Source of the DNA: Escherichia phage YUEEL01
Strand: one strand, 5' to 3'
Length of the DNA stretch: 64,000 nucleotides
Sequence record: NC_054935.2
This document shows positions 56,841 through 57,625 of this stretch, piece after piece. Position numbers and translations under genes: made by a program. Position 1 is the first letter of the stretch; every line of letters starts with the position of its first letter. The notes under the pieces are model-generated. The model did no database searches. It saw nothing but the letters and a program-made list of their open reading frames with translations, and had not been told where the DNA came from.

Positions 56841-57422
56841 ATGATTAAATTGGTATTCGCTTATTCTCCAACTAAAACGGTTGAAGGCTTTAATGAATTA
56901 GCATTCGGTTTAGGTGATGGTTTACCATGGGGACGAGTTAAAAAGGACCTCCAGAATTTTAAAGCTCGTACTGAAGGTACAACTATGATTATGGGTGCTA
57001 AAACGTTCCAGTCATTGCCTACATTACTTCCAGGTCGTAGACATATTGTAGTGTGTGACCTCGAGCGTGATTATCCTGAAACTAAAGATGGTGATTTAGC
57101 ACATTTCTATATTACATGGGAGCAGTACATAACTTACATTTCTGGCGGTTCAATTCAAGTGTCAAGCCCTAATGCACCATTCGAGGCTATGCTTGATCAG
57201 AATTCTAATGTAAGTGTAATTGGCGGACCCGCTCTGTTATATGCTGCATTACCTTATGCAGATGAAGTAGTTGTTTCTCGCATCGTTAAAAGACATCGTG
57301 TTAATTCAACGGTTCAATTAGATGCAAGTTTTCTTGATGATATAAGCAAGCGTGAAATGGTTGAAACACATTGGTATAAAATAGATGAAGTAACAACCCT
57401 TACGGAATCAGTGTATAAATGA
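56841..57422 (+). CDS. frd: dihydrofolate reductase
   Basis: 193 aa, exact T4 Frd length. Confidence 0.85.
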
Positions 57423-57625
57423 GCAATAAATTAAAAGTTAAGGATGTTCCTAATGCTATGGCCCTTTTTATTTGTCGGCAGATGCATCAAGGGCCTATGA
57501 CACCAAAACAATATCTTAAAGGTGAGCGTTCTTTAGGATTTACTCGCAAAGCAAAACAAATGGTTAAATTAGGATATAAGCCTAACTTTGCCAAATATCC
57601 TTCTACATATTCTTGGATGAACTAA
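57419..57625 (+). CDS. small basic hypothetical protein between frd and td
   Basis: 68-aa ORF; ATGA overlap with frd stop and TAATG overlap with td start. Confidence 0.45.

Follow-up and report, generated by a model that had tools for sequence, protein, structure and literature searches.

ORF68, a conserved small basic protein gene in the polymorphic frd-td junction of T4-like phages

The DNA analysed here is a stretch of 64,000 nucleotides from Escherichia phage YUEEL01 (record NC_054935.2; hereafter the window), a Tequatrovirus, in which an ATG-initiated open reading frame (ORF) of 68 codons, ORF68, lies between the dihydrofolate reductase gene frd and the thymidylate synthase gene td, all three on the plus strand. 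The frd gene, at 56841..57422 in the ORF list, matches Pfam DHFR_1 (E=1.1e-19), and its product is 95% identical in amino acid sequence to that of T4 frd; its TGA stop (57420-57422) lies within an ATGA (57419-57422) that also holds the ATG of ORF68. In turn, ORF68 extends over 57419..57625, stop codon included, and the last A of its TAA (57623-57625) is the first base of the td ATG (57625-57627), so that stop and start share TAATG (57623-57627). An earlier description made from the DNA letters alone (the sequence-only reading) had pointed to this frame, and the position, the translation, which matches exactly, and both overlaps were found as it had given them. Downstream, td comprises exon 1 (57625..58173, a boundary deduced from how td is annotated in T4 and from the protein junction FLG/LPF), a group I intron of 1016 nt (58174..59189) with 99.6% identity to the T4 intron, and exon 2 (59190..59501, from the ORF list and the T4 annotation), all on the plus strand, as is the I-TevI ORF located inside the intron (58305-59042; Pfam GIY-YIG, I-TevI_ZnF, and I-TevI_DNA-bd). 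An in-frame upstream TTG at 57613, from which the ORF list begins td, was dropped as a start, since alignment to T4, T2, and others leads to the ATG at 57625. The frd-td junction of the window showed 99.1% identity to those of Yersinia phage fPS-90 and Escherichia phage BP32.

In T4 (NC_000866), frd (T4p239) and td (T4p237) overlap directly as ATGA at 145109-145112, as the sequence-only reading had stated, and its annotation, inspected for ORF68 at this position, has no intervening gene. Likewise, ORF68 was not found in the T4 locus by tblastn and is no member of the T4 gene complement. Alignment of the two junctions revealed a clean 206-bp indel (a span of 507 bp in the window against 301 bp in T4), with the 3' end of frd and the 5' end of td the same in both phages, whereas the window has two overlaps and T4 only one. 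On the plus strand of the window, the difference is bounded by two copies of an AATGA direct repeat, the left at 57418..57422 and the right at 57624..57628, where it sits on the ORF68/td TAATG overlap. Because of where the indel falls, ORF68 takes over the initiation context …TATAAATGA… that is used by td in T4.

Judged by its conservation, ORF68 is a genuine phage gene. The protein matches PHROG 9550 from end to end (residues 1-68 on profile positions 1-68 of 68; E=1.3e-45), and nothing sets it apart from other members, such as g234c of fPS-90 (VEV89079.1) and gp235 of phAPEC8 (YP_007348396.1). Loss of the reading frame among homologues was looked for as well, and tblastn recovered the frame conserved in 235 phage records, comprising 131 at an identity of at least 95% (Tequatrovirus and Mosigvirus), about 30 at 60-90% (Klebsiella Marfavirus and Enterobacter phages), and 72 below 60% (Serratia Muldoonvirus and the phAPEC8-like Stephanstirmvirinae, at ~43%). 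Pairwise ratios of nonsynonymous to synonymous substitution rates (dN/dS, Nei-Gojobori) were 0.04-0.2 in pairs with unsaturated dS and 0.2-0.47 in those deep pairs that still allowed an estimate of dS; in many other deep pairs, saturation left dS undefined. Even the most distant homologues keep an N-terminal motif, M-x-N-K-x-K-V-x-x-V-P, and a C-terminal one, G-Y-K-P-x-Y-x-x-Y-x-S-x-Y-x-W, and therefore the 68-residue frame is right and a 42-residue version found in some annotations is wrong. Moreover, canonical Shine-Dalgarno sites (AAGGAGG or GAGGAGG) lie ahead of the homologues found outside the T4-like phages. When 1.84 billion representative proteins were searched exhaustively with the family profile, only 15 family representatives came back, all of them small phage proteins, which makes the family narrow and phage-restricted; a 723-residue repeat protein in the same search (E=1.6e-4) was taken as spurious.

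Annotation practice and one aberrant copy could be read as signs that ORF68 is a chance ORF or a non-coding spacer and no gene at all: annotators skipped it in JS98 (EF469154), the shorter version from Met27 was called in its place in P0018, and a copy in IMG/VR is frameshifted in an A-run. The conservation data already refute this view, to which we assign practically no probability, since different phage families share the frame, its length, and the first 26 residues, dN/dS is far under 1, and proper ribosome-binding sites are present. The idea that C-terminal conservation reflects only the td ribosome-binding site was also rejected, because the Y-x-W-(M/F)-(D/N) tail occurs in phAPEC8-like homologues with no td downstream. 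The frameshifted copy (IMG/VR UViG_2938479101_000007, 893-1100) carries a +1 shift in the A-run, AAAAAAAA in place of AAAACAA, which reflects a sequencing error or else marks a pseudogene.

ORF68 is already known as an annotated hypothetical protein and is not new. An identical protein occurs in 332 public contigs, the UniRef entry reads "Uncharacterized protein n=17 Tax=Tevenvirinae", and the label "hypothetical protein" is attached to g234c of fPS-90 and to its counterparts in dozens of other genomes, with a total above 100 GenBank phages. Besides JS98, where it is unannotated, IME339, phage EI, and P0018 have the 42-residue ORF from Met27. Two more specific labels did not hold: "flagellar biosynthesis protein" in PYPS2T is unsupported, and "DUF4858", given to an identical protein of vB_EcoM_Shinka, was reproduced by no Pfam scan, the domain being absent at E<=10 from scans of the ORF68 protein and 28 family members. 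In the literature on the family, the junction, and accessory-gene screens, no study of ORF68 was found.

With respect to T4, then, ORF68 is extra, as the sequence-only reading had it; for the wider group that term does not apply, since the direct junction of T4 is a minority arrangement and the slot is filled in T2, T6, RB14, and RB32. With the T4 junction as query and an evenly spaced sample of the matches, three span classes were distinguished: 301 bp, the direct overlap of T4 and a few others; about 717 bp, with a 115-residue ORF (PHROG 1928), in T2, T6, RB14, RB32, RB3, and many others; and 507 bp, with ORF68, as in the window. An frd match was counted in 539 records, the PHROG 1928 ORF at an identity of at least 90% in 363 (about 65-70% of T-even records), and ORF68 at the same threshold in 132 (about 25%). 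The remainder of these record counts, roughly 8%, would be direct T4-like junctions, in agreement with 6/57 full-coverage rows of the sample; the direct state thus makes up about 8-10% of T-even records.

The alignment with T2, in which ORF68 is absent, placed the PHROG 1928 ORF (BBF63391.1) in the same slot. Like ORF68, this ORF has no known function and is missing from T4, but the two are unrelated in sequence and size, and short spacers set the T2 ORF apart from frd and td, both of which ORF68 overlaps. The T2 insert measures 417 bp and is flanked by a 9-nt direct repeat, TAAATGAAA; this repeat and the 5-nt AATGA of the window are each compatible with insertion or deletion. In the T2-type junction, a two-codon mini-ORF (ATG AAA TAA) overlaps the frd stop and resembles a relic of a td start. 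The PHROG 1928 ORF, at 1648-2068 in the T2 locus examined (L006) and present also in L007 and L008, has no Pfam domain and is labelled "putative homing endonuclease" in BASEL phage Bas39. KMB38 is a further phage that, like T2 and Bas39, documents the polymorphism of the slot. The host named in several records with ORF68 or PHROG 1928 is implausible, and mislabelling or contamination is likely; examples are Campylobacter phage B15, which has a phAPEC8-type genome, Pseudomonas phage vB_PSGBLB0006, with an ORF of the T2 type, and a contig of 171 kb assigned to "Bacillus cereus".

Both families occur together in T4-like phages of Klebsiella, Serratia, and Enterobacter, in the order frd, one or two copies of PHROG 1928, ORF68, and td. 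Carriers of both include Klebsiella phage F48 (Marfavirus) and its IMG/VR relatives L015 and L016, the 175-kb L017/L018 lineage, and Serratia phage WSPA (Muldoonvirus). The simplest reading, drawn from this distribution rather than from a tree, is that of an ancestral accessory module differentially lost in Tequatrovirus and Mosigvirus. Under it, the order seen in carriers of both would be the ancestral layout in enterobacterial T4-like phages, Tequatrovirus and Mosigvirus genomes would have kept one family or neither, and T4 would have lost both.

Comparison with JS98-like Mosigvirus showed that the slot also exchanges its content between genera. DNA identity to the window is 97-99% over ORF68, compared with 78-83% over frd and 75-78% over td exon 1, which indicates a recent inter-genus move of a discrete cassette of about 250 bp. 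The high-identity tract, on the plus strand at 57419..57670, starts within about 10 nt of the ORF68 start and ends about 45 nt into td. It thereby includes the first td codons, where the window encodes QFLIKDIL against QDLIKDIF in T4 and T2 (D6F and F12L); the td N-terminus that accompanies the cassette (57625-57670) thus differs from that of T4 and T2, MKQYQDLIKDIFENG. The variant N-terminus is common to Tequatrovirus and Mosigvirus carriers of ORF68, and one locus (L013) has N at position 6. The exchange presumably proceeded by recombination at very short homologies.

The td intron offers a second potential route of spread. Homing by I-TevI co-converts exon I preferentially (PMC2988022), and ORF68 lies on the exon-I side, 550-755 bp from the I-TevI site, so co-conversion could help a linked ORF68 allele to spread within a genus. 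The Tequatrovirus-Mosigvirus transfer is a different matter: its identity tract stops short of the end of exon 1, and the transfer was therefore not an I-TevI co-conversion. These features bear on the view that ORF68 is a selfish or neutral passenger of no benefit to the phage, kept by hitch-hiking on recombination hot spots, namely, I-TevI homing with its exon-I-biased co-conversion or marker exclusion driven by seg and mob genes. Such a passenger would account for the sharp boundaries of the cross-genus tract, for the position on the preferentially co-converted side, and for the occurrence of the same ORF68 with and without the td intron (as seen from BLAST coverage, in classes that are not separable). 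We nevertheless consider it very improbable, given the strong purifying selection across deep divergence, which extends to F48 and WSPA, where td has no intron, and to phAPEC8-like phages, and given that I-TevI did not effect the transfer between the two genera. Furthermore, ORF68 encodes no nuclease domain. It has no Pfam domain of the free-standing homing endonucleases (seg GIY-YIG or mob HNH), for which 68 residues are too few, unlike I-TevI in the same window, with its clear GIY-YIG matches.

At the td side, every T4-like locus examined has the stop of ORF68 overlapping the start of td. Five T4-like lineages retain this overlap (Tequatrovirus, Mosigvirus, Marfavirus, Muldoonvirus, and the 175-kb L017/L018 lineage), which takes the form TAATG in the window, JS98, WSPA, and L015, TGATG in F48, and GTGA, with a GTG td start, in L017/L018. 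In the window, the ATGA and TAATG junctions are of the stop/start type characteristic of coupled cistrons, and a promoter and terminator scan found no such-like site between frd and td. From overlaps and scan together, co-transcription of frd, ORF68, and td is a reasonable inference, and the three are probably translationally coupled. ORF68 would then be transcribed within the prereplicative frd-td polycistronic message; ribosomes ending frd would probably start ORF68 at the ATGA by termination-reinitiation, and those ending ORF68 would probably start td at the TAATG. The sequence-only reading had proposed a three-gene coupled unit in the folate/thymidylate pathway. Its structural part agrees with what we observed, namely, the overlaps and the lack of a promoter- or terminator-like site between the genes, and the pathway-specific part does not, for reasons given below.

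An RNA element at the junction was considered and rejected on the Rfam and RNA folding results: the RNA around ORF68 had no unusual structure (z=0.12) and matched no Rfam family. At gathering thresholds, indeed, Rfam recognised no family anywhere in 55000-60500, and even the td group I intron was missed; the presumed cause is the endonuclease ORF, which splits the intron model.

The ORF68 protein (7.9 kDa) is strongly basic, with a net charge of +11 and an isoelectric point (pI) of 10.3, in keeping with its earlier description as rich in lysine and arginine, and every member of the family shares this basic character (net charge +7 to +16; pI 9.8-11.2) along with an abundance of aromatic residues. 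AlphaFold2 predicted three helices and a C-terminal tail, aromatic and proline-rich, packing back on the N-terminus; two independent runs agreed in topology, with predicted local distance difference test scores of 78.9 for the window protein and 76.8 for a phAPEC8-type homologue, which are moderate values. Pfam, NCBIfam, PADLOC, and PDB sequence searches with the protein and with the family alignment returned nothing, and no relatives of the predicted three-helix fold were detectable. Small tri-helical DNA-binding domains, of the helix-turn-helix (HTH)-like, integrase core-binding/SAM-like, and BEN types, were compared as the closest known systems; ORF68 gave neither a match to an HTH profile nor a significant fold similarity.

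The charge is the single functional clue. Its strength and conservation point to a polyanionic partner, most simply nucleic acid, and nucleic-acid binding by this predicted compact three-helix protein with an aromatic tail is plausible. The target would most likely be either nucleic acid or an acidic protein of host or phage. In our favoured reading, ORF68 is a genuine, dispensable accessory gene riding in the frd-td operon, whose product most likely modulates infection in a non-essential way, by host takeover or counter-defence, and is probably no dedicated regulator of the folate/thymidylate enzymes. Taken jointly, an accessory gene, a polymorphic slot, coupled translation, polyanion binding, and cassette exchange form the best explanation of the data, in which we place moderate confidence.

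A dedicated regulator or partner is what the sequence-only reading had suggested for the middle gene, in the form of a protein that binds the frd-td mRNA, or thymidylate synthase (TS) or dihydrofolate reductase itself, and tunes their expression or activity, with placement and coupling fixing its stoichiometry with TS. The position directly upstream of td, with a stop/start overlap retained in five lineages although its sequence varies, would fit such a role, as would the basic charge, which would suit RNA binding, and the fact that the exchanged cassette takes along roughly the first 15 td codons with D6F and F12L. The genomic context of the family argues otherwise. In phAPEC8, the homologue gp235 lies at 10.35 kb on the plus strand, in a block of about 17 kb of small early hypothetical genes, and thymidylate synthase (gp156) lies at 45.7 kb on the minus strand, 35 kb away; metagenomic homologues, which also sit among small early genes, have neither td nor frd inside a distance of 5 kb; and T4 and T2-type phages run the same pathway from the same frd and td genes with no ORF68. 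A role restricted to folate/thymidylate metabolism is therefore unlikely. In addition, the junction RNA is unremarkable in structure and hitch-hiking by itself would produce linkage over 45 nt of td, so the regulator, for which we found no direct support, appears to us improbable.

We hold a similarly low opinion of a bolder version, in which ORF68 would be the first of a new structural class of small, basic effectors of phages and, in T4-like phages, would work in connection with thymidylate synthase: it might, for instance, bind RNA and act on the td message or intron, or associate with TS as a subunit of the machinery for deoxynucleoside triphosphate synthesis. If true, it would explain both the fusion of the ORF68 stop to the td start in five lineages and the co-travel with the first td codons.

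Another candidate is a counter-defence or host-takeover effector whose target is a host protein and not nucleic acid, such as an inhibitor of an immunity or stress factor; phages that do not encounter this host factor would not retain the effector. This would suit the patchy presence among close relatives, with alternative genes in the same slot, the recent movement of the cassette between genera, the surroundings of gp235 in phAPEC8, and a small protein of novel predicted fold with an aromatic and proline-rich tail. Moreover, one metagenomic homologue, of 92 residues (286-669 in contig L009, from Logan ERR3943981), has about 4.3 kb upstream, on the opposite strand, a gene for a Tad2-like protein (PF11195, an anti-Thoeris family); no other known counter-defence gene was seen close to a member of the ORF68 family. 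On the other hand, no similarity to a characterised anti-defence protein turned up in our searches, none of which was made against an anti-defence library; PADLOC, which covers defence systems, had no match to ORF68; and the strings MSNKLKV and MKGNKMKV do not occur in the supplement text of one accessory-gene screen paper. Many known protein inhibitors of the counter-defence kind are acidic nucleic-acid mimics, and the uniformly very basic ORF68 family is unlike these. An effector directed exclusively at a host protein thus seems rather unlikely to us, and the accessory gene with a polyanion-binding product is the reading that we retain.

The variability of this region is not confined to the slot. 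Between the frd.2 homologue (FRD2, 55494-55859) and frd, the window contains three small ORFs within 55998-56837, upstream of frd: a DUF5417 ORF of the family of T4 frd.1 (55998-56240), a DUF7247 ORF (56251-56586), and a PHROG 3183 ORF (56595-56837). Since T4 has frd.1 alone between frd.2 and frd, the whole stretch from gene 32 through frd to td is plastic.

In brief, ORF68 as it stands is an ordinary hypothetical gene, already in public databases and one of many conserved small phage proteins; a link to td or to host defence, if one were found, would make it moderately interesting. For the T4-like phages as a group, our data correct a T4-centred view, in that the textbook ATGA overlap of frd and td is a minority arrangement, probably a derived one, and the junction is a slot for accessory genes, with three or more alleles and recombination across genera, presumably at very short homologies.
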